From sequence record PQ659294.1: a stretch of DNA of 45,053 bases. One strand, 5' to 3'. The DNA comes from Escherichia phage vB_ecoS_OzMSK. The position numbers and the translations under genes are program-made. Shown piece by piece: positions 1 to 32,383 of the stretch. The notes beneath the pieces were generated by a model. The model had not been told where the DNA came from and searched no databases. It saw only the letters and a list, made by a program, of their open reading frames with translations. Each line of letters starts with the position of its first letter. The first letter of the stretch is position 1.

Positions 1-119
1 AGCAATATTGCTTCAGATGCAATGATGTTTTTGATTGTTGCGGATTGAGCAATTAAGTGGTGAGTGAGTGAATGAAAGATGGATGGACTACCATACAAGT
101 TGATTTTGATTCTTGCTAA

Positions 120-460
120 GCTACTTTCACGCATACACGTTATAAAAGTTATGCCGTGTAGATGCGCCAGCTCCCCGTTGGAATCATGTACGTCTATCAC
201 GCTAAATTACGCAATGGTTACATAATAATATCTATATATATCAACCATTTAGTACTATTATTATTATTATTATTATATACGCGTATATAATGTATATAGT
301 GGATATTGGATATTGCGATAGTTTTCTATGATTTTTTCCTACAAGTGTAGGAATTGGATGACACTGTAGGAATAAATAGGCATATATGGGCCAATGCTCC
401 ATGAAAGCCGATGTACAAGCTATACGCAGTGGTTACATTGAGCTATATCTGGGGTTTGGA
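120..460. repeat. AT-rich repeat region with palindrome ATATACGCGTATAT and (TTA)6; diverged copy of 25840..26150
   Basis: See the paired region; (TTA)6 at 258..275. Confidence 0.6.
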
Positions 461-571
461 ACTGAAAAGCGTAAATAAATTGAATTCAACCATAAATAAC
501 AATTGATAACATGTAACCTCAATGATACCATGCACCCATCTTAACGAGAGCAACCAATCAGGAGTATATCT

Positions 572-1093
572 ATGTCAAATCGCATTCAACCAGTAAGCCT
601 TGGTGATGTTATCCGCTACATGGCTAAGCAGGCACTTAAGGCCGACAACAGGACTTTTCATGCTCCAATCAATCTTATAGCTCGCCAGGTTTACGGGCTA
701 ACGTCTGATGATATGGGTCGAATCAGCGCTGAGGATCTAGATAGTGGTGGCAAATACAGCCTGGCAAAGCTGAAGGCTTCATATGTCTCTAACACGGTTG
801 CCAGGATGCCAGAAATTCAGGCGGCGAACGTTCGGGCTAAGCTGTCAATCAAGGACGGAGACTTCGGGGATGATGTTGATGTTCGATGCGCATACATCAC
901 CTTGGTTGATGGGGCAATACAAACGGGAAGGAGAGTTAAAGCCAACAATCAGATTGCACAGAATGCGGTGAACGACTTCAAGGATAGAATCCTTAAGCTG
1001 ATGCCATCTGTGACAGATTTTGAAGGAGATGAGATTACAGGAGCAATCAAAGCAATCAAGATGTACCAAGAAATGATTAAGGAGACAAAATAA
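572..1093 (+). CDS. hypothetical protein (173 aa)
   Basis: Long ORF with RBS-like AGGAG 7 nt upstream of ATG; no recognisable motif. Confidence 0.55.
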   Translation: MSNRIQPVSLGDVIRYMAKQALKADNRTFHAPINLIARQVYGLTSDDMGRISAEDLDSGGKYSLAKLKASYVSNTVARMPEIQAANVRAKLSIKDGDFGDDVDVRCAYITLVDGAIQTGRRVKANNQIAQNAVNDFKDRILKLMPSVTDFEGDEITGAIKAIKMYQEMIKETK

Positions 1094-1512
1094 TGGGGAT
1101 GTTTGATTTTAACGAAGATAAGCTGACTGATGATGAGATTATGAAGATTGCCATGCGGGACGGGCTTCCACCGCTGCGGGTTGCTATCAATGCCAATGGC
1201 TATCGGTAATCACAGAGATTCTGGTGCAGTGTTGAGGAGTTGCTAAGCACAAAACTCAGCAGTAAGTTAGGTGTGGTTGTGCGCAAGATTCACGGTCAGA
1301 GCAGGAATGGTAAAGGGGTTGTAGGTATTCGATCAACATACGAAGTGCTGAGAAAGGTCCAGCCATTTGCAGGACTCGGCGGGGTCATGTATGACATGAA
1401 AAACAACATCCTGCCATCGCTACAGGACGCGGGAATCATCTGCTTAATAGGGGATAAGATTTACGTTCATCCATACGTAGTGGGCATGCATGCGATAGAA
1501 GTTGAAGAGTAG
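1093..1512 (+). pseudogene. internally deleted, stop-interrupted remnant of a paralog of the 527-aa P-loop protein (41384..42967, minus)
   Basis: Single reading frame 1093..1512 with one in-frame TAA at 1207..1209; N-terminal 38 aa (MGMFDFNEDKL...LPPLRVAINANGYR) and C-terminal ~75 aa (NGKGVVGIRS...CLIGDKIYV) match the N- and C-termini of the 527-aa protein; the central ~400 codons are missing. Confidence 0.5.
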
Positions 1513-1640
1513 TGCAAAGACTGGGATGAAGGTGAGCGCGCTAGTAGACTACCATACCACTTGCGGTACAGTGAGGAAGAGGTGGAGAAGGCCATCGAGT
1601 TCTTCCGGAAAGCGAAAGCTCTCCTGAATGGTGAATATTA

Positions 1641-1856
1641 ATGCTTATAAAATGCGTTTACGTAAGGCAAGCCAATAGCCACAACCTTTCAGTTGTAAAT
1701 GGCGGGATATACGTAGCTAAGCCAATACCTTGTTTTAATGGCTCATACCACATCAAGATTGATGACAATGAGTACATAGTAAAGACGGTAGGTGAAGCCC
1801 TCATGATAAAGAGCCTAGGTATCATAATGGCTAAATTCGAAATCGTTAGCAAATAG
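1641..1856 (+). CDS. hypothetical protein (71 aa)
   Basis: ORF; stop TAG lies inside the first promoter-like motif copy. Confidence 0.4.
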   Translation: MLIKCVYVRQANSHNLSVVNGGIYVAKPIPCFNGSYHIKIDDNEYIVKTVGEALMIKSLGIIMAKFEIVSK

Positions 1857-1896
1857 CACGAATTGCTAAACAATGGATCGGGTAGTCAGCTATGAT
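1851..1896 (+). promoter_or_regulatory. class-A promoter-like cassette (AAATAGCACGAATTGCTAAA, ~22 nt, TATGAT)
   Basis: Inverted repeat TAGCA-N5-TGCTA followed at conserved spacing by a -10-like hexamer and a conserved leader; same architecture recurs about 15 times. Confidence 0.5.
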
Positions 1897-1926
1897 TACC
1901 CCATCGACAACAAAGAGGAAATTAAG

Positions 1927-2115
1927 GTGATTAACCTAACTGATGATGAGTGCATTGCTGTAATAAAGGTTTCTAAGTTGATGAGTCAAAGATTTGACAC
2001 GCTTTCACTAAAGCATGGTTTTGCCTGGGAGATTTTTGATGATCATGTCAACCTGGATGACTTCATGTCAGCATCTATTAAGATTAAAGAATATATAAAA
2101 GAGGTGAGTGAATAA
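1927..2115 (+). CDS. small protein, member 1 of a tandem paralog trio (GTG start; the track ORF 1873..2115 starts inside the promoter cassette)
   Basis: Leader aligns with other cassette leaders (..caaagaggaaattaagGTG); N-terminus INLTDDE resembles MITINLSEE and MITINLSDK of the next two genes. Confidence 0.4.
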   Translation: MINLTDDECIAVIKVSKLMSQRFDTLSLKHGFAWEIFDDHVNLDDFMSASIKIKEYIKEVSE

Positions 2116-2116
2116 G

Positions 2117-2308
2117 ATGATTACTATCAACCTGTCAGAGGAGATGGCTGCCGACCTTCTTGATTCGCTAAGCCTGGTCAAAATTCGCTACGGAACTTAC
2201 CACAGAAGCGAATCAGTAAAGGAGGTGGTAAAGCAAGTTAAGCAGCAGGTCGGAGTGGTCAAGATCGAATTGCAGAACACCCCATACGATTTTAAGAAAG
2301 GTGAATAA
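2117..2308 (+). CDS. small protein, tandem paralog 2 (63 aa)
   Basis: ATG 2117 preceded by gaggtgagtgaataag; N-terminus MITINLSEE. Confidence 0.5.
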   Translation: MITINLSEEMAADLLDSLSLVKIRYGTYHRSESVKEVVKQVKQQVGVVKIELQNTPYDFKKGE

Positions 2309-2309
2309 G

Positions 2310-2528
2310 ATGATTACAATTAACCTGTCAGATAAGCAAGCAGCAGAACTGAAGTCCATGCTGTCAATCTTTGAGAAGCCAAATGACCGAGCAATTTCAA
2401 AAGAGGTTATTACTCAAATCAACAACCAGCAATTCGACGTAAGTGACTTCGAGTCATCACGACAGTACGAGGCGCTTAGCGTCAATGCGGCATACCTGAC
2501 TAATTGGGATAAGGCGACTAATAAATGA
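2310..2528 (+). CDS. small protein, tandem paralog 3 (72 aa)
   Basis: ATG 2310 preceded by near-identical aaggtgaataag; N-terminus MITINLSDK. Confidence 0.5.
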   Translation: MITINLSDKQAAELKSMLSIFEKPNDRAISKEVITQINNQQFDVSDFESSRQYEALSVNAAYLTNWDKATNK

Positions 2529-2754
2529 TTCTAAATGTTGATTTTGCAAGCTCCAGAGCTTGTAATATTTTGGATTCCGACGCGGCATGAAGTTGATTGC
2601 TGTAGTAAACGAACGCGGAATCCTCACAGTTAAATAACCGAAGACTGGCGTGCATATGCACGTAAAAGAAAATGGCGGAAGAGTTTTTATCAGATCAATG
2701 TCTGGTGAAACAATGGTAGCATCCTCAAAAATATAAGTACAAGGCGAATAAGAA

Positions 2755-2898
2755 ATGATTTACATCCATACATACTACACTGGTAAGTTTAACAGCGTTA
2801 AGCACGTTCGAGTGTACGAGGGGTTTCATAAAGCATTTGAGCAGCAGAGGGTTCTTGGTGGAACTATTAAGTGGTGTGAAGTTGTCAAAGAATGCTAA
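2755..2898 (+). CDS. possible small protein (~47 aa)
   Basis: ORF below the track cutoff; start context gaataagaaATGATTTAC resembles the paralog trio starts; stop in motif copy 2. Confidence 0.25.
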   Translation: MIYIHTYYTGKFNSVKHVRVYEGFHKAFEQQRVLGGTIKWCEVVKEC

Positions 2899-2942
2899 AT
2901 AGCACGAATTGCTAAACGCAGTCGCCACGGATGGCATATAAT
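2897..2942 (+). promoter_or_regulatory. class-A promoter-like cassette (motif, then TATAAT at 2937..2942)
   Basis: Consensus motif and -10-like hexamer at the conserved spacing. Confidence 0.5.
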
Positions 2943-2972
2943 TACCCAGTCAACACAAAGAGAGATTGAGAA

Positions 2973-3143
2973 ATGTTAACGATAATGATGACTAACCTTG
3001 AGTTAAATGAATTCAGCATTCTAGCTTTTATTATGCCAATACTGCTAATTCTTCCATTCGCTGCGTACGTCGTAATGAAAGATAATGCAGAGTGGAAGCG
3101 GATTGATAAGAAAATCAAAGAAGCAACGCACAGGAATAAGTAA
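2973..3143 (+). CDS. small membrane protein (56 aa, one hydrophobic helix)
   Basis: ORF below the track cutoff; sits at the conserved distance after the cassette leader; hydrophobic segment FSILAFIMPILLILPFAAYVV. Confidence 0.35.
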   Translation: MLTIMMTNLELNEFSILAFIMPILLILPFAAYVVMKDNAEWKRIDKKIKEATHRNK

Positions 3144-3144
3144 A

Positions 3145-3384
3145 ATGTTCGGACTAAATGAAGCTATGTTTAATGCAGTAAAGCGCCAGGCTAAAAAGCT
3201 CAACGATAAGTATGAGTCATTAAGCAAGCTTGACCGCAAGAATGATAAGTTAGTTGCGGGTATAATCACTGAGATTTGGCAACCAGTTTCTACAGTTATT
3301 AGCAGGGATCGATTTGTGTGGGTAGCCGGGTATCTCAAAGGTCGAGTTGGTCATGACGAGAATGGGAATAGCCTTTATGAGTGA
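3145..3384 (+). CDS. hypothetical protein (79 aa; ATG at 3145 within track ORF 3085..3384)
   Basis: TAAAATG stop-start junction with the upstream small ORF; basic N-terminal region. Confidence 0.4.
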   Translation: MFGLNEAMFNAVKRQAKKLNDKYESLSKLDRKNDKLVAGIITEIWQPVSTVISRDRFVWVAGYLKGRVGHDENGNSLYE

Positions 3385-3707
3385 GTTAACAATCTGGTTT
3401 ATCGCGGGACTGATTGCTTGGGGTTACTTTTTAATCGTTTAGATGAGATTGTTAAAAAGAGCTTGCATCACTGACCGGAATTATCTAACATTAACAACGT
3501 AGACAAACGAGGCCACCAAGTGGCAACGGCGCACGGAGCGAACTACACGGTAAGCCCGCTGTTCATTAAGTAGCATATGCGGCACATTGGACCAAGAGGA
3601 TAAGGCGTAAACCTCAACCCTTATGGGACTTGGAAGACCTAGCGCAAATAGGCAGATTAACCGGCTGTATCAGGCAGCCCCGGAGCCGTAACCGGGACTC
3701 ATTCAAA

Positions 3708-3785
3708 GCTCCGCTAGCTCAATTGGATAGCAGCAACGACCTTCTAAGTCGTAGGTTACTGGTTCGAGGCCAGTGCGGAGCGCCA
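3708..3785 (+). tRNA. tRNA-Arg, anticodon UCU, with encoded CCA
   Basis: Hand-folded cloverleaf: acceptor GCTCCGC/GCGGAGC (7 bp), U8, A14, GG in D-loop, anticodon stem ACGAC/GTCGT with loop CTTCTAA, 5-nt variable loop, T-stem ACTGG/CCAGT with loop TTCGAGG, discriminator G, CCA. Confidence 0.7.
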
Positions 3786-3812
3786 AATTTAACCAATAAT
3801 CCTGGGGGATTC

Positions 3813-3998
3813 ATGAAAATTGTAACATTCATCGTGAAAGATTCAGAAACAGGTTCCGTTCAGAAGTTTAACGCAAAGATGGACTTCACGGAAACCCGAG
3901 TGGTCAAAGGATCACTTAATGGAGTTTCTGTATCCGCGCAGCTTCCGCATGGTTTTGATTACTTATTCGGAAAACAATCAGCAAATGACGATGAGTAG
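3813..3998 (+). CDS. hypothetical protein (61 aa)
   Basis: ATG at 3813 with upstream GGGGGA; this is the 3' part of track ORF 3630..3998, whose 5' part runs through the tRNA. Confidence 0.4.
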   Translation: MKIVTFIVKDSETGSVQKFNAKMDFTETRVVKGSLNGVSVSAQLPHGFDYLFGKQSANDDE

Positions 3999-4182
3999 CT
4001 TGTGGGATGTGAAGTTGTCCATTCGCTTAATGGGCCGCTCGTGCAAGAATTGCACTCAAGATTACATCGCGTCAGTTGCCGCAATCAGCGCTGAGGATGC
4101 GGTAGCGAAAGTAAAGAGTATGTCAGGAGCTGCCCCTGATACTCACAAATTCCTGGTAGCTTACGTTCGTGAGCGAAAGTAA
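3985..4182 (+). CDS. hypothetical protein (~65 aa)
   Basis: ORF followed by a strong intrinsic terminator; start 3985 or 3991 uncertain. Confidence 0.35.
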   Translation: MTMSSLWDVKLSIRLMGRSCKNCTQDYIASVAAISAEDAVAKVKSMSGAAPDTHKFLVAYVRERK

Positions 4183-4226
4183 AAAGCGTTATACCCTCGT
4201 TAAGTTTCGTTTCTCTCGTTGTTTTT

Positions 4227-4250
4227 AGCCCTCGCTTGAGGGCTTTTTTT
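4227..4250 (+). terminator. rho-independent terminator (AGCCCTCGCTTGAGGGCT + T7)
   Basis: GC hairpin followed by a T-run. Confidence 0.7.
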
Positions 4251-4270
4251 CGTCTGTAATATGGTATAAT
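4251..4270 (+). promoter_or_regulatory. sigma70-like promoter with extended -10 (TGGTATAAT) ahead of the packaging/head operon
   Basis: TGGTATAAT at 4262..4270 directly after the terminator; AAGGAGG RBS and ATG 4294 follow. Confidence 0.5.
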
Positions 4271-4293
4271 CTGACCTCAACAAAGGAGGATTT

Positions 4294-4800
4294 ATGAGCA
4301 AAGCAGCATTAAAGATTGGTGAGGGAAACTTCAAGGCGCTCTACAACAAGAAGTATGGCGATATTGCTATGGTCGCAATCAACCGTAAGTACACGCCCGA
4401 GGAGGTATTTGACTTTGCAGTGAGATACTTTTCATGGGCTGAGAATGAGGCAATCAAGGCCATTGAGACGGCTGCATTCCAGGGTGTGGTTAGCGAGAGC
4501 CTGGTTCACAAGCCTCGAGTGTTCACCTTAACTGGCCTGGCGCTATTTATGGGTGTCAATATCAATAGATTCGCTCGCTGGCGTACTGAGGCTGGTTACT
4601 CTGACGTGATGGAATTCATTGATAACGTAATTTATGAGCAGAAGTATCAGCTTGGCGTTGCAGGCATCATCAACTCCACAATCGTTGGTAAAGAGTTAGG
4701 GATTGATAAGCCGCAGGAGATTACCATTAGCAACAACTCCACAGCTAACGACGTTGATAGCATGAAGGAAGCGCTGGAGTCTGTGATTAGTAAGTTATAA
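4294..4800 (+). CDS. terminase small subunit (putative)
   Basis: 168-aa ORF immediately upstream of the large terminase; strong RBS AAGGAGG. Confidence 0.55.
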   Translation: MSKAALKIGEGNFKALYNKKYGDIAMVAINRKYTPEEVFDFAVRYFSWAENEAIKAIETAAFQGVVSESLVHKPRVFTLTGLALFMGVNINRFARWRTEAGYSDVMEFIDNVIYEQKYQLGVAGIINSTIVGKELGIDKPQEITISNNSTANDVDSMKEALESVISKL

Positions 4801-4818
4801 CAATAAGAGGGTATAACA

Positions 4819-6384
4819 ATGTCTTTAGTGTGGGAAGAAATGACCATTCAGGAGAAGATGGCGGTTAAGGCTATATCAGAACACAGCTTCGAGGGTTTCC
4901 TTCGGTGCTGGTTTTCAATAACCCAGGGAGAACGATACATCCCTAACTGGCATCACAAGTACTTGTGCAGAATCATTGACGAGATTATCGCAGGAGAGCG
5001 CAAGGATACCATCATTAACATAGCGCCGGGCAGCGGAAAGACGGAAATCGCTTCAATACACTTCCCGGCATACTCGATGGTTAAGCTGAAGAAGGTGAGG
5101 AATCTTAACATCTCATTTGCCGACTCCCTTGTAAAGCGCAACTCGAAACGCGTACGTGACCTTATCAAGTCTCAAGAATTTCAATCACTCTGGCCTTGCA
5201 AGTTTGGCACATGCAAGGATGATGAGCTTCAGGTTCTTGATGAGAGCGGAAAGGTTAGGTTTGAGTCAATATCAAAGGCGGCTGGAGGCCAGATTACTGG
5301 TGCTCGCGGTGGCTACATAACTGAAAATTACAGTGGTGCGGTGTTGTTAGATGATTTCGATAAGCCCGCAGATATGCTTTCTCCGGTTTATCGAGCTAAT
5401 AACCACGTAATGCTCAAGAACACAATTCGATCACGTCGCGCTAGCTCTGTAAAAGGAAAAGCGACACCAATCATTTCGATACAGCAGCGTCTGCACGTCA
5501 ATGACTCAACCTGGTTCATGATGGAAGGTGGGATGGGCATCGATTTTGACTTGATTAAGATACCAGCGCTAGTTACTGAGGATTACATCGACTCGCTCCC
5601 TGACTGGATTAAAGAGCAGTTTGCGGAAGACGTTTTAAGCAGTGAGTACATTGAGAGAGATGGCGTAAAGTACTATAGCTACTTCCCAAAAAAGGAGTCA
5701 GTAAACGACCTGGTTGCGATGTGGGATAGTGACCCGTACACTTTTCTCAGCCAGTATCAACAAGAACCAGTAGCACTTGGTGGCAATCTGATTAACGTAG
5801 ACTGGTTCCAGCGTCTTAGTGATACATTCAGGCATCCAGCCAAGTACGATTATAGATTTATAACTTGCGATACTGCGATGACCACAAAGAGTTATAGTGA
5901 CTTCTCTGTACTTCAGTTGTGGGGATATAAGGATGCTAAGATTTACCTGATAGACCAGCGCAGGGGTAAATGGGAGGCTCCAGAATTAGAGGCTGAATTA
6001 CTTGACTTCGAGAAGAAATCAAGGGCAACCAGTCAGTCAGATGGCATCCTACGAAAAATCATTATCGAGAAGAAAGCCTCTGGTATCGGCTTGATTCAAT
6101 CTGCAGGCAGGGTAATGCGAACTCCGATAGAGCCATACGTACCGGATAGCGACAAGCTGACTCGCGTGATGAGCGCGTTACCACAGATCAAGGCTGGTAA
6201 CGTCGTCCTTCCAGAGTCTGCGCCATGGCTAAATGGATTGCTTACGGAGGTTGCGGCTTTTACGGCAGATGACTCGCATAAGCACGACGACCAAATTGAC
6301 TGTCTAACAATGGCAGTAAACCTTGTTCTCAATATCGCGGATGATCCTAAGGCACGACTAATGCGCATAGCGGGAATTAAATAG
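4819..6384 (+). CDS. terminase large subunit
   Basis: 521 aa; Walker A-like NIAPGSGKT near the N-terminus; C-terminal nuclease-like acidic residues; position before portal. Confidence 0.85.
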   Translation: MSLVWEEMTIQEKMAVKAISEHSFEGFLRCWFSITQGERYIPNWHHKYLCRIIDEIIAGERKDTIINIAPGSGKTEIASIHFPAYSMVKLKKVRNLNISFADSLVKRNSKRVRDLIKSQEFQSLWPCKFGTCKDDELQVLDESGKVRFESISKAAGGQITGARGGYITENYSGAVLLDDFDKPADMLSPVYRANNHVMLKNTIRSRRASSVKGKATPIISIQQRLHVNDSTWFMMEGGMGIDFDLIKIPALVTEDYIDSLPDWIKEQFAEDVLSSEYIERDGVKYYSYFPKKESVNDLVAMWDSDPYTFLSQYQQEPVALGGNLINVDWFQRLSDTFRHPAKYDYRFITCDTAMTTKSYSDFSVLQLWGYKDAKIYLIDQRRGKWEAPELEAELLDFEKKSRATSQSDGILRKIIIEKKASGIGLIQSAGRVMRTPIEPYVPDSDKLTRVMSALPQIKAGNVVLPESAPWLNGLLTEVAAFTADDSHKHDDQIDCLTMAVNLVLNIADDPKARLMRIAGIK

Positions 6385-6432
6385 CCGTGATAAACTAAGC
6401 CCCTATATGGGGATTTTCTATTGGAGAAAAAC

Positions 6433-7701
6433 ATGGTTAAGACAGACAGCTACGCCAATATCTTTCTAGGCGGCAGTGATGGTAGTGAGATTTACGGGAG
6501 TTTGCAGAGCCAATCCCCTACAATTCTGGCTTCGCTTTATGCGGACAATGCGCTGGTGCGTCGAATCATCGACACAATCCCGGAAACAGCACTAGCGGCA
6601 GGATTCCACATTGATGGAATTGATGATGAGCCTGCATTCTGGTCGCGCTGGGACTATCTAGAACTAACAAAGCACATCAATGAAGCCTGGTCGTGGGCTA
6701 GATTGTTCGGTGGGGCAGCAATTGTTGCTATCGTTAAGGACAATAGAGCTCTAACAAGCCCGGTCAGAGAAGGGGCGGAACTTGAAACCGTTCGCGTTTA
6801 CGACCGTACTCAAGTAAAAGTACAAACTCGCGAAGAGAATCCCCGCAACGCACGTTTTGGCAAGCCACTAACCTATCGCGTCACCACTAATGAGAGCGAT
6901 ATGTTCTATGATGTGCACTACAGCCGAATTCACATCATTGACGGAGAGCGAATCCCTAACGTAATGCGTCGGCAGAATGATGGCTGGGGCCGCAGCGTTC
7001 TTTCCAGTGACATTCTTGACTCAATCAAGGATTACACCAACTGCGAAAGACTCGCCACCCAACTACTGAGACGAAAGCAGCAAGCAGTGTGGAAAGCCAA
7101 AGGTCTGGCTGAGTTGTGTGATGATAGCGAGGGATTTGGTGCCGCAAGGTTGCGCCTAGCACAGGTTGATAACAATAGCGGCGTTGGTCAGGCGATTGGC
7201 ATTGACGCGGAATCTGAAGAGTATAGCATCCTAAACTCTGATATTGGCGGGATTGATGCGTTCCTGGATAAGAAGTTTGACAGAATCGTTGCACTGAGCG
7301 GCATTCATGAGATTATCCTGAAGAATAAGAACGTTGGCGGCGTATCATCAAGTCAGAACACCGCATTGGAGACATTCCATAAACTAGTCGATCGCAAGCG
7401 TAACGCTGAACTACTGCCGATTCTCGGGTTCCTGATTCCGTTCATTTCAGACGAGCAAGAATGGTCAGTGGAGTTTAATCCCCTAGCGCAGGAATCAAGT
7501 AAGGATAAGGCCGAGATTCTTGAGAAGAACGTAAACAGCATTGCGACACTAATTGCAGCTGGCGCTATGGACATTGACGAAGCTAGGGATACATTGCGCA
7601 CAATCGCTCCAGAGGTTAAGATTAGTGACGGTTCAGTAGAAACAGAGGTGACAATTAGTGAAGCCAGTAATGACCCGCTGGAAGTACCCACAGACAATTG
7701 A
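6433..7701 (+). CDS. portal protein
   Basis: ~420 aa ORF directly after terminase; ATG 6433 with GGAG RBS (track start 6421 is TTG). Confidence 0.8.
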   Translation: MVKTDSYANIFLGGSDGSEIYGSLQSQSPTILASLYADNALVRRIIDTIPETALAAGFHIDGIDDEPAFWSRWDYLELTKHINEAWSWARLFGGAAIVAIVKDNRALTSPVREGAELETVRVYDRTQVKVQTREENPRNARFGKPLTYRVTTNESDMFYDVHYSRIHIIDGERIPNVMRRQNDGWGRSVLSSDILDSIKDYTNCERLATQLLRRKQQAVWKAKGLAELCDDSEGFGAARLRLAQVDNNSGVGQAIGIDAESEEYSILNSDIGGIDAFLDKKFDRIVALSGIHEIILKNKNVGGVSSSQNTALETFHKLVDRKRNAELLPILGFLIPFISDEQEWSVEFNPLAQESSKDKAEILEKNVNSIATLIAAGAMDIDEARDTLRTIAPEVKISDGSVETEVTISEASNDPLEVPTDN

Positions 7702-8386
7702 GAGCCAGGTAAACCGCAATCTTAGCATTGCGGTAACTGAGCTAATTTCAGCAATGAGGGAATCAGCAACAAGACTTAAAATTGATACTGCAGAGGAGCT
7801 GGAGGAAGAGGATGGATATCTTGACGGGATAATTGCGGCGCTGGTGGCTTCATTTATATCAACAATCCCAACCATAGGTGCAGCTATATACAGATACAAT
7901 AGCTCGCAATTTCTTGTGCTTGCAATCAAGACTGGCGGGAGGTCAAACCCTAGCGTTCTAGACCTTGAAGTTAATGGCATCAATGGCGATGAGCCGTGGT
8001 ATAATGATGACCTTAATCAGTGGGTTTACACCACAAACAAGTCAGTGATTAAATTGCTGAATAACATTAAAGATGACTTTTTGCAGACGGCGTCAACAAT
8101 CCAGAATGGGGACTACGTTAAGTTATCCGATAGGTACAAAACATACAGGAAGCGAACGGCAAACATTGCATCTGGAATTGTCTCAAGTCTGAACTCAACA
8201 CTTATGAGACGTAGGCTTGAGGATGCTGGTGTTAGCCGATACGTCTGGCATGGAATGCTAGATGAAAGAGAGCGCCAATCTCATATAGCGAGAGAAGGTC
8301 TTAGCTTTAAACTTGGTGGTGATGATATATTTCCAGGTCAAGAATACGGTTGTCGTTGCTGGTCAGTTCCTGATTGGGAATCATAA
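7658..8386 (+). CDS. head morphogenesis / minor head protein (SPP1 gp7 / Mu F-like, putative)
   Basis: 242-aa ORF overlapping the portal 3' end; GTG start with GAGGTG RBS. Confidence 0.55.
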   Translation: MKPVMTRWKYPQTIESQVNRNLSIAVTELISAMRESATRLKIDTAEELEEEDGYLDGIIAALVASFISTIPTIGAAIYRYNSSQFLVLAIKTGGRSNPSVLDLEVNGINGDEPWYNDDLNQWVYTTNKSVIKLLNNIKDDFLQTASTIQNGDYVKLSDRYKTYRKRTANIASGIVSSLNSTLMRRRLEDAGVSRYVWHGMLDERERQSHIAREGLSFKLGGDDIFPGQEYGCRCWSVPDWES

Positions 8387-8433
8387 TGTGAGGATAAACG
8401 ATGAATTTGATGGCTTTTAGTGAGGAGAATTAA

Positions 8434-9519
8434 ATGAGTAAAATCCGCTATGACAGCGCAAAGTTTAAGGCAACAATCGACGAGAATGGATTCTTAGTCG
8501 ATACACCAGTAGTCGCACGTCTAGGTGTGCAAGTCTACTACATGGAGGACGGTCGCACTGTTCGAGAGTTTCGCCCAGCAGAGGAGGTTTTCAAGGATGA
8601 ATCACTCTCCAGCTACCAGGGTAAGCCAATGACTCTGGATCATGTTTTCGTTAACTCAGAGAACGCTAAAGAGGTAGTGGTAGGTTCCGTTACTGGCAAA
8701 GCTGAGCCATTGGGTAGCTCAGTGGTTGCTCCGATTGTTGTTTACGATAACACAGCCATTCAGGAAGCTATGGCAGGTAACGCCAAGGAGTTATCCGTTG
8801 GTTACTCTGCAATTCTTGACGAAACCCCTGGCTGGGGTGACCCTATTACTGGTGAGTACGTACTTAAATCTGATGGTGATCAATTCGATGCGCCAGATGG
8901 TTGGCAGGAGTTCGACGCAATTCAGCGTGACATTAAAGTGAACCATCTCGCAATGGTGTATCGAGGTAGGGCAGGTATTGCCAAATTGAATATGGACGGT
9001 GAGCAGGAAAACCCGTATACTACTGACGTTGATATCAATAAAGAGGATAAACAGGAAATGATTAAGATTAAACTCGACGGCGCGCAGGAATTTGAGGTTG
9101 CCCCGGAAATCGCTTCTCACATCGAAGCACTGAACGCAAAGGCTGACACCGCAATCGCTGAGCGCGATGCACTGAAAGCTAAAGTTGATGCAATGCCTGC
9201 TGAAATTGAGGCCGCAGTTGCTAAAGCGAAAGCTGACGCTGATGCCCTGGCGGCTCTGGTAGCTGTTGCCGCTGAAGCTGGTGTCAAGGCTGACGGCCTG
9301 GATGCTAAAGGCATTAAAGTGGCTTACGTTAAAGAAATCTCCGGCCTTGATGTTGGCGAGAAGTCTGACGCGTACATCGACGCAGCGTTCGACATTGCCA
9401 AAGAATCTGATAAAATGGCTGAAGTACGTAGAGCGACTACCGCTTCCGACAAATCTGACAGCGCCGTAGAGCCTAAGAAATTAGACCCGCGTGCTCGTTT
9501 AGCTAAAATTAAGAAATAA
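8434..9519 (+). CDS. capsid scaffolding protein (putative)
   Basis: 361 aa; C-terminal half is Ala/Lys/Asp/Glu-rich predicted coiled coil; lies between head morphogenesis and capsid genes. Confidence 0.55.
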   Translation: MSKIRYDSAKFKATIDENGFLVDTPVVARLGVQVYYMEDGRTVREFRPAEEVFKDESLSSYQGKPMTLDHVFVNSENAKEVVVGSVTGKAEPLGSSVVAPIVVYDNTAIQEAMAGNAKELSVGYSAILDETPGWGDPITGEYVLKSDGDQFDAPDGWQEFDAIQRDIKVNHLAMVYRGRAGIAKLNMDGEQENPYTTDVDINKEDKQEMIKIKLDGAQEFEVAPEIASHIEALNAKADTAIAERDALKAKVDAMPAEIEAAVAKAKADADALAALVAVAAEAGVKADGLDAKGIKVAYVKEISGLDVGEKSDAYIDAAFDIAKESDKMAEVRRATTASDKSDSAVEPKKLDPRARLAKIKK

Positions 9520-9530
9520 GGAGTTATAAC

Positions 9531-10040
9531 ATGGCAATTCGTTCCGTAGCACTGGCTGGTATGGTTTCTGATACCTCTCTGTACAACATCGATGGCGCTT
9601 GTGTAGTTGGCGGCGCAGCAGCCATTCCGGTTGGCACTTTTGTTGGCGTTACATCCGCTCAGCCTGTAGATGGTCACAAGGTTGTTGGACTCCCAGTCGT
9701 AACTGGCTCGGCAGTTAAACCTTATGGTGTTGTTGTTAAATCTCATTACGAGACTCCAGATGGCACAGCTCGCGTAAATGAAGCGGTTAACGTAATGACA
9801 CATGGTCGAGTCTGGGTTCGTACAAATCTAGCGGCTGCGCCAGCTTTTGGTGGCAAGGTTTTTGTAAACGCGAGTGGCGTTGTTGTCGCAGAAGCGGCAG
9901 GTGCTACTTGGGAGACTGGTTTTACATTTGCTGGTGGTTACATTAAAAACACGAGCACAGACCCGCAAGACCTAAGCGTTGATGGCGCACTAGTTGAAGT
10001 TCAGCTTATTCAATCCGCAGGCTCAACTGTTGCAGCTTAA
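9531..10040 (+). CDS. putative head decoration / structural protein (169 aa)
   Basis: Gly/Val/Ala-rich ORF between scaffold and major capsid, followed by a strong terminator. Confidence 0.4.
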   Translation: MAIRSVALAGMVSDTSLYNIDGACVVGGAAAIPVGTFVGVTSAQPVDGHKVVGLPVVTGSAVKPYGVVVKSHYETPDGTARVNEAVNVMTHGRVWVRTNLAAAPAFGGKVFVNASGVVVAEAAGATWETGFTFAGGYIKNTSTDPQDLSVDGALVEVQLIQSAGSTVAA

Positions 10041-10055
10041 TAATTAAGATATATA

Positions 10056-10079
10056 AAGCCTCCTTCGGGAGGTTTTTTT
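10056..10079 (+). terminator. rho-independent terminator (AAAGCCTCCTTCGGGAGG + T-run)
   Basis: GC hairpin with TTCG loop and T7. Confidence 0.7.
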
Positions 10080-10085
10080 ATGTCA

Positions 10086-10113
10086 TTGCGTGGGCTAAAA
10101 ACTCGTGTATAAT
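10086..10113 (+). promoter_or_regulatory. sigma70-like promoter (TTGCGT, 16 nt, TATAAT) for the major capsid gene
   Basis: Near-consensus -35/-10 hexamers with 16-nt spacer. Confidence 0.55.
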
Positions 10114-10151
10114 GAATACGTAAACACATAACTGAAAAGGAACAATAAAGA

Positions 10152-11096
10152 ATGGCCATTAAATTTGATGCAGAACAAGCAAAAATCACCGCTCACCTCG
10201 AGCAAATGGGCGTAGAAAAAGCTGATGCCGCTGGTATCTGGACCGTTAGCCAGCTCACCGCTGCTCTGAACCGTGCTTACGAAAAAGAATACGCAGAAAA
10301 CTCAGTTGTTAATATCTTCCCTGTAACAAATGAAATTCCTGGTCACGCGAAGTATTTCGAATACCCAGAGTTTGATGGTGTTGGCATTGCTCAGATTATC
10401 GCTGACTACTCTGACGATCTGCCGCTGGTTGATGCGTTTATGACCGAGAAACAAGGCAAAGTGTTCCGTTTCGGTAACGCATTCCTGATTTCTACCGATG
10501 AAATTAAAGCGGGTGCTGCAACTGGTCAGTCTCTGTCAACTCGCAAGCAGGCATTGGCTTTCGAAGCGCACGATAACTTGCTGGATAAACTGGTGTGGTC
10601 TGGTTCCACTCCTCACGGTATCGTAAGTGTATTCGATCAACCGAACATCAACAACGTTGTTGCCACTCCAAACTGGAGCGTCGCGCAGAACGCGATTAAT
10701 GACGTCACTGCGATGATTGATGCGGTTGAGAGCTCAACCCAGGGCCTACATCATGTAACTGACATTCTGCTTCCAGCTTCCGCTCGTCGAGTGATGCAGG
10801 GACTGGTTCCGCAGACAAACCTGAGTTACGGCGAATTGTTCACTCGTAACAACCCGGGTCTGACCATTCGCTTTATGCAGTTCCTGGACAACTACGATGG
10901 CGCAGGTGGCAAGGCTGCTCTGGCGTTTGAAAAGAATCCACTCAATATGTCTATTGAGATTCCAGAAGCTACTAACGTACTTCCTGGGCAGCCCAAGGAC
11001 TTGCACTTTAAGTACCCTGTAACATCAAAGGCGACGGGTTTGATCGTTTATCGTCCACTGACGATGGCTGTAATGAAAGGTATCACCTTCGCGTAA
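10152..11096 (+). CDS. major capsid protein
   Basis: 314 aa; own promoter and flanking strong terminators (high-expression context); position in head module. Confidence 0.75.
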   Translation: MAIKFDAEQAKITAHLEQMGVEKADAAGIWTVSQLTAALNRAYEKEYAENSVVNIFPVTNEIPGHAKYFEYPEFDGVGIAQIIADYSDDLPLVDAFMTEKQGKVFRFGNAFLISTDEIKAGAATGQSLSTRKQALAFEAHDNLLDKLVWSGSTPHGIVSVFDQPNINNVVATPNWSVAQNAINDVTAMIDAVESSTQGLHHVTDILLPASARRVMQGLVPQTNLSYGELFTRNNPGLTIRFMQFLDNYDGAGGKAALAFEKNPLNMSIEIPEATNVLPGQPKDLHFKYPVTSKATGLIVYRPLTMAVMKGITFA

Positions 11097-11100
11097 TAAA

Positions 11101-11125
11101 CCGCCCTCTTCGGAGGGCTTTTTTT
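11101..11125 (+). terminator. rho-independent terminator (CCGCCCTCTTCGGAGGGC + T7)
   Basis: GC hairpin plus T-run; followed by ACGTCTGTA..GGTTATAATC promoter-like sequence. Confidence 0.7.
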
Positions 11126-11189
11126 ACGTCTGTACCAAATGGAATTGTTGGGTTATAATCACTCAATCAGATAAACAAAGGAGACAAAA

Positions 11190-11435
11190 ATGATTCGTTT
11201 AGAACACACTGGCGCTTGCCTTATCGTTTACAAGGGTGAGAAATATTTGCCTGGTGACACTTTCGAGGTTGATGTAATTTGCGACGGACTCAAGCGTTTA
11301 ATCGCAGAGGGTAAACTCACTATTGAAGGTGACGCTAAAGCAACCAAGCAAATCGCGCAAGAAATTGTTAGCAAGAAAAAGCGCAAAGAACCGAAAACCA
11401 TCTCCGAAGCTGAGACTGGTAACGAGTACAAATAA
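11190..11435 (+). CDS. hypothetical protein (81 aa)
   Basis: ORF with AAGGAG RBS, flanked by terminator-like hairpins. Confidence 0.5.
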   Translation: MIRLEHTGACLIVYKGEKYLPGDTFEVDVICDGLKRLIAEGKLTIEGDAKATKQIAQEIVSKKKRKEPKTISEAETGNEYK

Positions 11436-11476
11436 CAAACAGGGCGCTTCGGCGTCCTTTATTGTATGGAGCTAAT

Positions 11477-11878
11477 ATGAATGATGCAATTTTGGCGTTT
11501 ATGCGCTCTCTTGTTCCTGCGCTTAAAGCGGTGGATGACGAAGCAATTAATGTATGGATTGATTTGGCACGTCTATATGTATGCGAAAGCAAGTTTGGCG
11601 CAGACAAAGATAAGGCCGTAGGACTTTACGCGCTACACCTGATGCTTTCTGATGGCGCATTTAAGGGTGAGAGTGAAAGTCTGGAAACATACAGTCGAAG
11701 AATGGCAAGTTACGCACTGAGCGGTGAATTCTCTATCACCTATGATAACCAATCAGCAATCCAAGGTGATTTATCATCTTCCTCCTGGGGCCGCATGTAC
11801 AAAGCACTGCTCCGCAAGAAAGGTGGCGGCTTTGGATTTATTACTTCCGCTGGTGGCGGCGGGTGCGGTTGCCGATGA
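11477..11878 (+). CDS. head-tail connector / neck protein (putative)
   Basis: 133-aa ORF (ATG 11477 with GGAG RBS) in neck region; Gly-rich C-terminus. Confidence 0.4.
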   Translation: MNDAILAFMRSLVPALKAVDDEAINVWIDLARLYVCESKFGADKDKAVGLYALHLMLSDGAFKGESESLETYSRRMASYALSGEFSITYDNQSAIQGDLSSSSWGRMYKALLRKKGGGFGFITSAGGGGCGCR

Positions 11879-12246
11879 ACTACAGCGAAATCGAATCAAT
11901 CACTCGCTCTGGCATTGACTTCTTTAGTGATGCCAATGGCGTTTATGAAATGAGTACTGGTGATGGATATGTTGAAATCGTTAACGGCGTTGAAGTTGAA
12001 GTTCCTTCGCAAACACTTCAGCTAAAAGGCTTGGTGCGAGAAATCAAGACGCGAGATATCGATGGCGAGTTTATCCAGTTTGGCGATAAGCGCGGAATCT
12101 TCACGGCACAGGTAGAAATCAAGCAGGGTTATCAGATTAAAGTTGATGGCGAGACTTTTGTTGTTGTTGATCCTCGCCCAGTTAAACCAACTGGTACAGT
12201 TGTTGGTTATAGACCAATTCTTCGTAGGGTGACTACTTATGGCTAG
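11875..12246 (+). CDS. head-tail joining protein (putative)
   Basis: ATGA stop-start overlap at 11875; position in neck module. Confidence 0.4.
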   Translation: MNYSEIESITRSGIDFFSDANGVYEMSTGDGYVEIVNGVEVEVPSQTLQLKGLVREIKTRDIDGEFIQFGDKRGIFTAQVEIKQGYQIKVDGETFVVVDPRPVKPTGTVVGYRPILRRVTTYG

Positions 12247-12688
12247 TTTTATACCGAAGGCTAATGGCGGGGTTATTGAATTTAGCCGTTCCATTTCTGA
12301 ATGGATAGATAAGGTTGAATCTGGAGTTGATGAGGTTGTTGCAGGAACCATTATCAAGACAGCCAAGGGTCTGGTAGATCAGTCACCGGTTGACACTGGT
12401 AGATTTAAAGCCAACTGGCAAATAACAGCAAACTCCCCGGCTCAGCAGTCAGTAATTGACTATGATAAACTTGGAACAGAGACCAAAAGAGCACTCGCAA
12501 GACAGGCAAGGGCGGTAGCCAGAGCAAAGGGAACAAAGGTCATTTACATAACAAACAGGCTTGATTACTCAATTCACCTTGAGTATGGCGGCTCGGGTCA
12601 AGCACCAAACGGCATTATTAGGATTGTTCAGATGCGGCTTGGTCGATACTTCCAGGAAGCAGTAGAGGAGGCTAAACGTGCACTATGA
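12239..12688 (+). CDS. tail completion protein (HK97 gp10-like, putative)
   Basis: 149 aa; motif DTGRFKANW resembles the HK97 gp10 family signature; overlapping start. Confidence 0.45.
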   Translation: MASFIPKANGGVIEFSRSISEWIDKVESGVDEVVAGTIIKTAKGLVDQSPVDTGRFKANWQITANSPAQQSVIDYDKLGTETKRALARQARAVARAKGTKVIYITNRLDYSIHLEYGGSGQAPNGIIRIVQMRLGRYFQEAVEEAKRAL

Positions 12689-13079
12689 ATTGTCTATAGC
12701 TGCCAGGAAATATGTTAATGATTTGCTGGTGAGTAGCTTCCCAGTCAGATATCCAGTATCTTGGGAAAACGTTGCTTTCACTCCTCCAGCAGATGGCTCT
12801 ATCTGGCTAAAGTATGACTACATCGAGGTTGACACCGTAACATACGGGCTGAGCAGGAAGTGCAAATACTATGTAGGGATGGTGCAGGTTTCTGTCTTCT
12901 TCAGTCCAGGCACTGGCATTGATAAGCCTAGACAAATCGCTAATCGATTGGCAGAATCTATCGTTGATGGTACAATGCTTGACAGCGGGACCATTTATGA
13001 GTCTGGAGTTGTTAACCCGGTTATCAAATCCAAGTCTGGGTGGTTTATCCCGGTTCATTTTTATGTTCGTCTAGACTAA
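12678..13079 (+). CDS. tail terminator-like protein (putative)
   Basis: 133 aa; GTG start with GGAGGAGG RBS; position immediately before major tail gene. Confidence 0.4.
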   Translation: MHYELSIAARKYVNDLLVSSFPVRYPVSWENVAFTPPADGSIWLKYDYIEVDTVTYGLSRKCKYYVGMVQVSVFFSPGTGIDKPRQIANRLAESIVDGTMLDSGTIYESGVVNPVIKSKSGWFIPVHFYVRLD

Positions 13080-13094
13080 CAAAAGGAAAAATAC

Positions 13095-13751
13095 ATGGCT
13101 CATCTCAGCAATGGCACGCAGGTCTTCGTAGAAGGCTCTCGCGGTGACACAATTGATGTAACTGCAATTTCTAACGCAGCTACCCCTGTTTTAACTGTAT
13201 CTGACGCCTCTGGCTTGGTTGTTGGTGATTACCTGCTTTTCACCTCATCGGCCTCTACACTTCTGGCTGACAAGCAAGTACGAATTACTGCAATTTCTGG
13301 CACTTCGGTAACAGTTGAAGGTATTGATACCTCCAACACCACTAAGTTCCCTGCTGGCTTAACTGGTGAAGTTGTTAAGATTACTTCATGGTTCGAAGTC
13401 CCGTGTGTTCAGGACGTATCTACTGACGGCGGCGAACAGCAGTTTGTTAACTTCCAGTGCCTTTCTGATGACCGCGAACAGCAGATTCCGACTTATAAAT
13501 CTGCGGTAACAAACACCTTCACCTTTGCTCACGAGTACACCAACCAGGTCTATCCGGTTCTGCGTAACTACGATGAGTCTGGCCAGGTTGTCGCGATTCG
13601 TCTGTTCGTACCTCGCGCTCAGGAAATGCGTTTGCAGTCCGGCACTATCACTTTCAACGACACCCCTACCATTGGTGTTAACGAGATCGAAACGGTATCC
13701 ATCGCAGTATCAATTCGTGGTCGCCTGTCCTCTGTAGCAGCTGAAGTTTAA
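13095..13751 (+). CDS. major tail protein
   Basis: 218-aa Thr/Ser/Val-rich ORF followed by a strong terminator; precedes chaperone pair and tape measure. Confidence 0.65.
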   Translation: MAHLSNGTQVFVEGSRGDTIDVTAISNAATPVLTVSDASGLVVGDYLLFTSSASTLLADKQVRITAISGTSVTVEGIDTSNTTKFPAGLTGEVVKITSWFEVPCVQDVSTDGGEQQFVNFQCLSDDREQQIPTYKSAVTNTFTFAHEYTNQVYPVLRNYDESGQVVAIRLFVPRAQEMRLQSGTITFNDTPTIGVNEIETVSIAVSIRGRLSSVAAEV

Positions 13752-13757
13752 AACACA

Positions 13758-13779
13758 AACCCTCTTCGGAGGGTTTTTT
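13758..13779 (+). terminator. rho-independent terminator (AAACCCTCTTCGGAGGGTTTTTT)
   Basis: GC hairpin with TTCG loop and T-run. Confidence 0.7.
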
Positions 13780-13784
13780 ATTGC

Positions 13785-13827
13785 ATAGCACTTTTGCTAA
13801 AGCACTTATTCAGCTTTACTGTATAGT
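13785..13827 (+). promoter_or_regulatory. degenerate class-A cassette (ATAGCACTTTTGCTAAAG, then TATAGT) driving the moron
   Basis: Variant of the inverted-repeat motif plus -10-like TATAGT and a leader resembling other cassettes. Confidence 0.4.
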
Positions 13828-13860
13828 TATCTCATCTAAACGAAATGAGAGATTAAAGAA

Positions 13861-14109
13861 ATGAATAACGTTAAAAACATCATCAAACTTGCTGCAGTTC
13901 TTGTTGCTTTTTATGCAGTAGTTCAGATTGTTAACCCAACTGGCGAGGCTGATGCCAATAGCAAGGCAAACAAATATACCGTTGAGTTCGCTAAAGCTGA
14001 GCGAGCATGCCAGGAGCTTGTGGGTAGTAAAGTTGACCAAATCATGAAATATGGCAAAGAGGTCTGCAAGGACTCAGCTGCTAAGATTGCAAAAGAAAAC
14101 ACTAAGTAA
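13861..14109 (+). CDS. small secreted or membrane-anchored protein (82 aa); moron candidate inside the tail module
   Basis: N-terminal hydrophobic segment IIKLAAVLVAFYAVVQIV; own promoter-like cassette and upstream terminator; AT-rich flank. Confidence 0.5.
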   Translation: MNNVKNIIKLAAVLVAFYAVVQIVNPTGEADANSKANKYTVEFAKAERACQELVGSKVDQIMKYGKEVCKDSAAKIAKENTK

Positions 14110-14148
14110 TAGAATACATACTCACAAACAATAAGAGGATTAACTAAG

Positions 14149-14463
14149 ATGGCTAAGTTCAAACTTTCACTGGCAGCACTCCCTGACTTCAAGCTTCCGG
14201 TAAAATTCAAGCTGGCTAACGACCAGGATGTAGAGGTTATCTTTACAGTCAAGCATAAGAAAACATCTGAGCTTCAGGAGCTTTTGCAGAAAGAAGACTT
14301 GAGTACTAAAGAATTGATTATGGCAATCGCCTCTGATTGGGATTTGGAAGAAGAATACAACGAGGATAACGTTAATGAGTTCTCCGACCTGTTCCCAGCG
14401 TCAACAGTTGCACTGACTACCGCTTACATGCAGGCACTGGCAGGCCAGCGGGTAAAAAACTAA
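14149..14463 (+). CDS. tail assembly chaperone (lambda G-like)
   Basis: 104-aa acidic ORF immediately upstream of tape measure; ends with slippery heptamer A_AAA_AAC then TAA. Confidence 0.65.
   Translation: MAKFKLSLAALPDFKLPVKFKLANDQDVEVIFTVKHKKTSELQELLQKEDLSTKELIMAIASDWDLEEEYNEDNVNEFSDLFPASTVALTTAYMQALAGQRVKN
14454..14460 (+). promoter_or_regulatory. candidate -1 programmed frameshift site (A_AAA_AAC)
   Basis: X_XXY_YYZ heptamer in the zero frame two codons before the G stop; the -1 frame is open into ORF 14472..14783. Confidence 0.55.
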
Positions 14464-14471
14464 AGAGGGCG

Positions 14472-14783
14472 GTGTATCTACAGTACCAGTCAGATCCAAC
14501 AGATGCCGAACTGGAAGCTATTGGGATGCGCCGCTCTGATTACGAAGACGAAGAGCCTGAAGTTTTGCACTTCGACGATAACATGATGAAGGCGTGGGAC
14601 ATTTATTGTTCAATGGCGACACAGTGGAGAGTCGGAGCCAACGGACCAACGGGCCTAGATTACAACGTGCTAAATTTCCTCTTTAGAGTGTATAATGTTT
14701 CTGAAGAGGAATTGGTACTCAGCGATTTACGCATCCTTGAAGCTAAGGCTCTCGAGATGATGGATAACCTGATAAAAAAATAA
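14472..14783 (+). CDS. tail assembly chaperone T-like extension (probably made as a G-T fusion by -1 frameshift)
   Basis: ORF in the -1 frame relative to G, no convincing independent RBS, followed by terminator and tape measure. Confidence 0.5.
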   Translation: MYLQYQSDPTDAELEAIGMRRSDYEDEEPEVLHFDDNMMKAWDIYCSMATQWRVGANGPTGLDYNVLNFLFRVYNVSEEELVLSDLRILEAKALEMMDNLIKK

Positions 14784-14806
14784 CCCGCTTCGGCGGGTTT
14801 TCTATT
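14782..14806 (+). terminator. terminator-like hairpin (AACCCGCTTCGGCGGGTT + TTCTATT)
   Basis: GC hairpin with TTCG loop; weak T-run. Confidence 0.45.
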
Positions 14807-14818
14807 ATGGAGGCTTAG

Positions 14819-17797: not shown

Positions 17798-17827
17798 TTA
17801 ATGGGGCTTCGGCCCCTAAGGATTTTT

Positions 17828-18178
17828 ATGGCTATTGATACTTTTAACTGGTGCACGCAGATTCAGGGCGGGTCCGCATCTTTCAGTAACACAAACAACG
17901 TCCGCATTGTTAGCTTCGGTAATGGTTATGAGGCTAGAGGCACTGGCGGTTATCGCAGCAATAAGCGCAGCTACCAGATGACCTACACTAACAAGGACTG
18001 GAGAGATGTGATGGATTTCTGCCTCAACCACATCATTACCCCGTTCTTCTGGACTACGCCGCAGGGCGACACATCCATGTTCGTTATTCAGCAGGATAGT
18101 ATTAGCGTTACACCAGTCAGTAAGGAAGTTCAGACTGTAAGCATGCAATTCGTAGAAGTATTTAGTTCAATGCGTTAA
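17828..18178 (+). CDS. minor tail protein (lambda M-like)
   Basis: 116 aa from ATG 17828 (track start 17801 lies in a hairpin); first gene after tape measure. Confidence 0.65.
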   Translation: MAIDTFNWCTQIQGGSASFSNTNNVRIVSFGNGYEARGTGGYRSNKRSYQMTYTNKDWRDVMDFCLNHIITPFFWTTPQGDTSMFVIQQDSISVTPVSKEVQTVSMQFVEVFSSMR

Positions 18179-18181
18179 ACT

Positions 18182-18204
18182 AAGCCCCTATGCGGGGCTT
18201 TTTT
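18182..18204 (+). terminator. rho-independent terminator (AAGCCCCTATGCGGGGCTTTTTT)
   Basis: GC hairpin plus T6. Confidence 0.6.
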
Positions 18205-18217
18205 ATTGGAGAAATAT

Positions 18218-18973: not shown

Positions 18974-18983
18974 GGGGGAGCAA

Positions 18984-20295: not shown

Positions 20296-20301
20296 ATATC
20301 A

Positions 20302-20323
20302 TACCCGCCTAGTGCGGGTTTTT
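20302..20323 (+). terminator. terminator-like hairpin (ACCCGCCTAGTGCGGGT + T6)
   Basis: GC hairpin plus T-run. Confidence 0.55.
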
Positions 20324-20375
20324 TATTTAGTGTAGAATGGCACAAATGATCAAAACAAACATGAGGCTTTGTGAT

Positions 20376-32337: not shown

Positions 32338-32383
32338 ACTATACACAATGTATAGCGCCACTGTTTATCAATTCGTGCTATTT
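32338..32383 (-). promoter_or_regulatory. class-A promoter-like cassette upstream of primase
   Basis: Minus-strand AAATAGCACGAATTGATAAA then TATAGT; motif overlaps the stop of the upstream gene. Confidence 0.5.

Follow-up and report, generated by a model that had tools for sequence, protein, structure and literature searches.

A tandem pair of DUF7180 genes with a conserved upstream neighbour in a small-gene cassette of the T1-like phage Msk

We analysed a 45,053-nt stretch of DNA from Escherichia phage vB_ecoS_OzMSK (PQ659294.1, taken whole and hereafter called the window) and, within it, a run of three short open reading frames (ORFs), A, B and C, which a first-pass annotation had described as a tandem trio of small paralogous genes. 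The window is a rotated copy of phage Msk (MW057918.1), to which it is 100% identical; Msk is a T1-like siphovirus whose nearest relatives in our comparisons fall in Drexlerviridae/Braunvirinae. The three consecutive plus-strand ORFs are present with the N-termini originally described, namely (V/M)INLTDDE at 1927, where the start is GTG, MITINLSEE at 2117 and MITINLSDK at 2310, the ATG positions having been given one base off. They are found inside a block of about 4 kb of small plus-strand genes, 5' of the tRNA-Arg and terminase genes. The features of the unit are the following.

1851–1871, + strand: 21-bp dyad motif AAATAGCACGAATTGCTAAAC (TAGCA-N5-TGCTA), heading the A-B-C unit as the upstream part of a phage-specific promoter-like module
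1891–1896, + strand: −10-like hexamer TATGAT
1927–2115, + strand: gene A, 62 amino acids, GTG start, separate small helical family, not DUF7180
2101–2119, + strand: A/B junction, with GAGGTGA (Shine–Dalgarno sequence, 2101–2107), GTGA, TAA (2113–2115), one G and the ATG at 2117
2117–2308, + strand: gene B, 63 amino acids, ATG start, DUF7180 N-terminal module in residues 1–45 followed by its own C-terminal tail
2298–2312, + strand: B/C junction, with AAGGTGA (Shine–Dalgarno sequence, 2298–2304), TAA (2306–2308), one G and the ATG at 2310
2310–2528, + strand: gene C, 72 amino acids, ATG start, full-length DUF7180, orthologue of Rtp7
2525–2754, + strand: pseudogene matching the intact 75-amino-acid gene of BEK1-1 (QGH77219.1, MILNVDFASYRACNIF...)
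2755–2898, + strand: gene D, 47 amino acids (MIYIHTYYTGKF...), Rtp9 family (phrog_3955)
2897–2917, + strand: next copy of the 21-bp dyad, at the beginning of the following transcription unit

B and C are tandem paralogues that diverged long ago within DUF7180, a family restricted to Drexlerviridae. BLASTP aligns them from residue 1 with 19 of 44 residues identical (43%, E 2e-6), and hhalign, run with profiles built from the relatives of each gene, pairs them over 41 columns with a probability of 96.8% (E 3e-10). Both proteins pass the curated gathering cut-off of 27 bits for Pfam DUF7180 (PF23805), C with 78.3 bits (E 6.9e-22; residues 1–71 on profile positions 1–72 of 79) and B with 31.4 bits (E 3e-7; residues 1–45 on profile positions 1–40). 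C also matches phrog_16063 (E 2e-39), whereas B matches PHROGs 16063, 8335, 11097 and 9709 in its N-terminal part only. The last three, all of unknown function, share this module of about 45 residues and differ in their C-terminal parts, which indicates that the N-terminal module has been combined with various tails. The similarity between B and C spans MITINLSxxxAAxL, a variable stretch and EVxxQ[IV]xxQ and reaches past the first codons, so that, for this pair, the earlier statement of divergence beyond the start of each protein is incorrect.

Across the family, the proteins consist of a conserved N-terminus (MITINLSxxxAAxLK), a variable mosaic middle of about 15 residues, of which there are at least eight distinct versions, a conserved EVxxQ[IV]xxQ motif and a subtype-specific tail. 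The duplication that gave rise to B and C is not recent, because the two genes differ at five synonymous sites within their shared first 14 codons and because the same pair occurs in three other phages; the local gene-family expansion proposed at first can thus be kept for the pair, as an old event, and not for the trio. The ratios of nonsynonymous to synonymous differences (pN/pS, pairwise Nei–Gojobori) are 0.20 for A, 0.14 for B and 0.30 for C, and show that A, B and C are genuine coding genes, each subject to purifying selection. Within C, the ratio is 0.24 for residues 1–16, 0.64 for the variable middle and 0.14 for the tail. The middle segment of C is either relaxed or diversifying, at a ratio that stays below 1. 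The AlphaFold2 (AF2) model of C contains helices at residues 8–18, 24–38 and 44–69, with a predicted local distance difference test score (pLDDT) of 68.

Gene A is not a detectable DUF7180 paralogue and belongs to a separate small helical family. BLASTP with A gave nothing relevant, and hhalign aligned only 7–9 N-terminal columns at a probability of 1–8%, even when distant homologues of A were added. No Pfam match was found for A even at E ≤ 10, nor any PHROG family, and the hidden Markov models (HMMs) of the two families are mutually blind: that of DUF7180 misses A in the window (E ≤ 0.01), and that of A misses DUF7180. In the AF2 model of A (pLDDT 76), the helices occupy residues 6–26, 33–36 and 43–61, a layout unlike that of C. 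Overall, the proposal of three tandem paralogues stands for B and C, on BLASTP, hhalign and DUF7180 membership, and fails for A. Pairwise alignment and structure prediction, which had been suggested as a check, give a likeness of A limited to the first codons with a different arrangement of helices, the very outcome named beforehand as speaking against common descent, whereas the alignment of B with C extends well beyond those codons. A copy of the A tail at the end of B was also considered, since the two proteins end in ...KGE/RGE, and was dropped, as hhalign gave no match between the tails.

Relatives of A use ATG at the codon where Msk has GTG (MINLTDDEC...). Members of this family are nearly always encoded directly 5' of a DUF7180 gene, as in Msk, A110b, SU57, P818, IME253 and metagenome contigs (L043–L050), with P817 as the exception. 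The N-terminal likeness of A to B and C could come from a 5' end made chimeric at the junction, or from a strand that serves for interaction in all three proteins.

The identical upstream context of B and C is present as first described. The 17-mer GTGAATAAGATGATTAC occurs at 2108–2124 and 2301–2317, and its 15-mer core GAATAAGATGATTAC has exactly two occurrences in the window without mismatch; ten bases of the 17-mer belong to the junction and the other seven encode M-I-T. At both junctions, the upstream gene ends in ...GGTGA(GTGA)A-TAA, and a single G separates this stop from ATG-ATT-AC. The element (A/G)AGGTGA, complementary to the anti-Shine–Dalgarno sequence, sits 5–9 nt 5' of the ATG, inside the last codons of the upstream gene. 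Both junctions thus have the properties of a translationally coupled pair, a close stop and start with the Shine–Dalgarno sequence inside the upstream coding sequence, and the shared context reads as an ordinary junction of ribosome-binding site, stop and start in the classic coupled-gene layout. The start contexts would be identical because of this layout, in which the Shine–Dalgarno sequence in the last upstream codons is followed by TAA, one base and ATG, and the translation of B and of C would be coupled to that of the preceding gene. The B/C junction is conserved in JeanPiccard and JulesPiccard and differs in A110b at the base before the ATG, while DUF7180 genes that come first after a promoter have an entirely different upstream context. 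When DUF7180 genes of different phages are compared, the variation within their first 23 nt falls on third codon positions (ACT/ACA/ACG/ACC, ATC/ATT, CTG/CTA). Together with the synonymous differences between B and C, this variation indicates that MITINLS is conserved at the protein level and that no recent gene conversion has taken place.

The distribution of the family is narrow. A DUF7180 profile search of 1.84 billion representative proteins gave 13 representatives at E ≤ 0.001, all from the same phage family apart from several large repetitive proteins that were hit spuriously. By tblastn, C-type genes occur in 98 phage records, almost all of T1-like coliphages, and full-length B in 4 of 50,697 phage records, namely Msk, A110b, JeanPiccard and JulesPiccard. 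The number of copies in relatives had also been suggested as a check: these four phages carry two DUF7180 copies each (in Msk and JeanPiccard by HMM scan), always as tandem B-C, and all other loci scanned by HMM carry one. Among the four are the BASEL phages JeanPiccard and JulesPiccard (Bas02 and Bas03). Rtp and other Braunvirinae hold DUF7180 genes at the same genomic position as B and C; compared with the family at large, B differs in its tail, and the tandem arrangement is a minority one.

Among relatives, the cassette is found as A-C, B-C, C alone or A-B-C. Its mosaic nature is visible in the middle segment, where C-type backbones carry a B-like KKIRYG segment in P0117, L044 and P818, and a single A allele is found paired with two different DUF7180 middle types. 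The A/B junction of Msk and the A/C junction of contig L043 are identical in sequence, which is compatible with B having been gained or lost through recombination inside a stretch of about 35 nt. This stretch, made up of the junction and the conserved 5' coding sequence, may serve as a homology patch for the gain, loss and swap of DUF7180 cassettes. It should be noted that A110b (L040, MG065688.1), recorded as a 'Campylobacter phage' and marked UNVERIFIED, is a Braunvirinae T1-like genome with A-B-C as in Msk, to which it is 84% identical in DNA over 1851–2495, and that its B start reads ATT and not ATG; its Campylobacter host label looks doubtful.

Downstream of C, the first-pass annotation had placed a fourth, degenerate start context at 2755. 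This position is the start of the unrelated gene D, and the bases 5' of it are the 3' end of the pseudogene, so that the context is unrelated to DUF7180. Aligned with BEK1-1 at the DNA level, the pseudogene (2525–2754) has lost 1 nt from a T run and is interrupted by two in-frame stop codons, and intact copies of the 75-amino-acid gene are found in BEK1-1 and in metagenome contigs L044 and L049. Gene D matches phrog_3955 (E 4e-23), the T1 gp04/Rtp9 family, and its Rtp homologue rtp9 is annotated as 'similar to gp04 of phage T1'. D too starts with ATGATT after a stop-then-start junction, but its family has no sequence relationship to DUF7180 and shares with it 'MI' alone; starts of this kind occur in 7 of 83 genes (about 8%) in JeanPiccard. 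A hairpin at 2544–2565 was considered as a boundary of the unit and rejected: it scored as terminator-like, yet lies inside the intact BEK1-1 coding sequence.

The 21-bp dyad that heads the unit is a repeated element of the genome. We found 11 copies in the window against 0 expected, at 1851, 2897, 25082(−), 25837(−), 27460, 31320, 32383(−), 35367, 35577, 39146 and 44156(−). In 10 of the 11, a TAnnnT hexamer follows 19–20 nt after the dyad, mostly together with a conserved leader, ATCGAAACGAGAGG, that carries a Shine–Dalgarno sequence. The copies at 1851 and 2897 bracket the unit of A, B, C, the pseudogene and D, and the same bracketing is seen in JeanPiccard, which has 10 copies, one of them directly upstream of its B gene. 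We consider it fairly probable that the small genes of 1851–2917 make up a single cassette, bounded by promoters, in the non-structural portion of the Msk genome. A transcription start is predicted near 1903, and the dyad centre would then lie near −41.5, a class II activator-like position; A, B and C would be read from one transcript.

Elsewhere, the dyad precedes small-gene clusters and methyltransferase, recombination and primase genes, and it is absent from the structural operon (4294–23762). Given this distribution of the promoter module, 'early or middle' expression of the A-B-C unit is plausible. No relevant paper on the dyad sequence was found in a literature search. A protein of 160 amino acids encoded at 32378–32860 on the minus strand has a Cro-like helix-turn-helix (HTH) domain (PF14549, E 6.7e-7, just under the cut-off) and is annotated in JeanPiccard as a 'putative transcriptional regulator'; a dyad copy overlaps the 3' end of its gene. 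We regard this protein as a candidate binder of the dyad.

An ATG at 1873 lengthens ORF A over the promoter and leader (1873–1926, + strand). Proteins P0162 and P0175 have the same N-terminus, MDRVVSYDY(P/Q)IDNKEE, fused to unrelated bodies. With transcription starting near 1903, the ATG at 1873 would fall upstream of the transcript, and the extension is probably an artefact of gene callers that translate the conserved promoter and leader as a spurious N-terminus.

Further downstream, the small-gene block is followed by these features.

3708–3785, + strand: tRNA-Arg, anticodon TCT, also present in related T1-like phages
4227–4244, + strand: strong terminator-like hairpin, AGCCCTCGCTTGAGGGCT followed by a T run, just 5' of the terminase small-subunit gene
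4294–6384: terminase genes, downstream of the small-gene block

The hairpin at 4227–4244 divides the structural operon from the small-gene block. In JeanPiccard the equivalent block comprises bas02_0062 to bas02_0084, and every gene in it is annotated as 'hypothetical'. In relatives, other genes lie upstream of the DUF7180 gene: a polynucleotide kinase in Rtp (L003, region 1424–2725) and P818 (L008, region 143–1831) and a P-loop nucleoside triphosphatase (NTPase) in JeanPiccard and JulesPiccard (L001/L041). A 30-amino-acid 'T4 Stp-like' peptide is also annotated upstream of the DUF7180 gene in Rtp. Msk lacks polynucleotide kinase, P-loop NTPase and Stp-like genes at this locus. Their presence in relatives hints at a block holding counter-defence-type functions.

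With regard to function, Pfam, PHROG and PDB searches gave no homology of A, B or C to any characterised protein, and the predicted small helical folds have no structural relative in fold searches. In the literature search, no paper mentioned DUF7180, and the Msk paper is silent on these genes and promoters; the HIDEN-SEQ essentiality study includes no Drexlerviridae phage. The reading we favour, tentatively and at somewhat less than an even chance, is that A, B and C may be dispensable, helical accessory proteins whose binding partner would be a protein of the host or of the phage, in counter-defence or host takeover. It is suggested by their small size, restriction to one phage family, and variation in presence, absence and copy number, and also by the mosaic variable segment and by the variable small-gene block, with polynucleotide kinase or P-loop NTPase in relatives. 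The conserved helices might then act as a scaffold and the variable middle and tail as the determinant of specificity.

Virulent phages carry arrays of small early accessory genes, for example in the early regions of T4 and T7, as does the lambdoid nin region. The A-B-C cassette resembles them in its short, packed and probably coupled genes, patchy distribution and mosaic boundaries, but the timing of its expression is deduced only from the type of promoter. A more elaborate and rather improbable version treats DUF7180 as a cassette scaffold in which the 5' junction with the N-terminal codons and the motif EVxxQINNQ serve as recombination handles. A would co-assemble with DUF7180 through its INL(T/S)(D/E) strand, and the two components together would inhibit some host target that varies, for example a defence system. 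The handles would let T1-like phages swap the specificity segment of about 15 residues and stack tandem copies.

Several alternatives concern the origin of the shared N-termini. A true triplication, with A as a third, extremely diverged DUF7180 paralogue that keeps only the N-terminal strand and helix cap, is unlikely, although it would account for the fact that INL[ST][DE] has just three occurrences when all 45 kb are translated in six frames, one at each N-terminus of A, B and C (0.24 occurrences expected by chance; at most 2 in 200 shuffles). The local hhalign P-value of 0.004 over 9 columns, the common size of about 60–70 residues, the helical character with an extended N-terminus and the nearly constant adjacency of A to a DUF7180 gene point the same way. 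Set against these are the weak overall hhalign probability, the failure of either family HMM to detect the other family, and the absence of DUF7180 or PHROG matches for A. In addition, the N-terminus varies within the A family itself (MIYLT, MIKLT, MNKLT, MTNLN), and the predicted first helix has 21 residues in A and 11 in C. We consider it far less probable still that the shared 5' sequence has been kept as nucleic acid, whether as an RNA or translation-initiation element or by recent gene conversion, and not as protein. The identity of B and C, 88% over +1 to +24 and 39% over +25 to +60, and the almost invariant codons TCA, AAC and ATT would agree with such an element, but the bases that distinguish one phage from another, or B from C, are at synonymous third positions, nucleotides 1–6000 contain no Rfam match except a tRNA, and promoter-proximal DUF7180 genes have a wholly different upstream context.

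Other alternatives give B and C a different activity. They, and perhaps A, might be ribbon-helix-helix (RHH)-like dimeric regulators with ITINLS as the DNA-reading strand, acting maybe on the 21-bp dyad. The size, the alternating hydrophobic and polar N-terminal residues followed by two helices within about 45 residues, and the motif ITI(N/T)LS recall CopG, Arc and MetJ. By eye, the motif resembles LTITLSES of CopG, and the genome has a repeated dyad for such a protein to bind. We judge this quite improbable: hhalign against CopG gave only 9.7%, no RHH family was found in Pfam even at E ≤ 10, and no RHH chain was among the PDB sequence and profile matches or the listed fold matches. RHH proteins keep the inter-helix segment short and conserved, but here it is the most variable part, differing in sequence and in length. 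The net charge counted from the sequence is neutral to acidic, not basic, and a more obvious candidate for a regulator is the Cro-like HTH protein encoded at 32378–32860. That the proteins are EF-hand-like helix-loop-helix calcium-binding proteins is the least credible proposal. The weak phmmer matches of C to the N-terminus of calmodulin (E 0.008–0.01) fade to E 0.3 with the family profile, and the loop EKPNDRAISKEV in C, which is the hypervariable part of the DUF7180 family, lacks the ligand pattern DxDxDG...E (acidic residues at 1, 3, 5 and 12; Gly at 6). Pentatricopeptide matches of C, in which no stretch was significant, were put down to sequence composition.

Some observations weigh against our own account of the locus, in which B and C are DUF7180 paralogues, A is a conserved neighbour, and all three are accessory binders. 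The triple INL[ST][DE] at the N-termini exceeds chance, and the view that A is unrelated does not fully explain it. The pN/pS of the variable middle is below 1, and the segment may be a loosely constrained linker instead of a specificity determinant. The AF2 models are only moderate, with the pLDDT values of 68 and 76 given above, and translational coupling, the transcription start and the timing of expression are all deduced from the DNA itself.

Taken together, the 'three paralogues' turn out to be two, B and C, which join an existing uncharacterised family, with A as a conserved neighbour beside them. On its own, the finding about A-B-C is ordinary and matters little. If A, B and C are indeed accessory binders, DUF7180 and A would form a compact Drexlerviridae-specific module with a swappable specificity segment, worth adding to anti-defence screens with Bas02 and Bas03. 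The 21-bp dyad module is probably a more useful lead than A-B-C for the regulation of T1-like phages.
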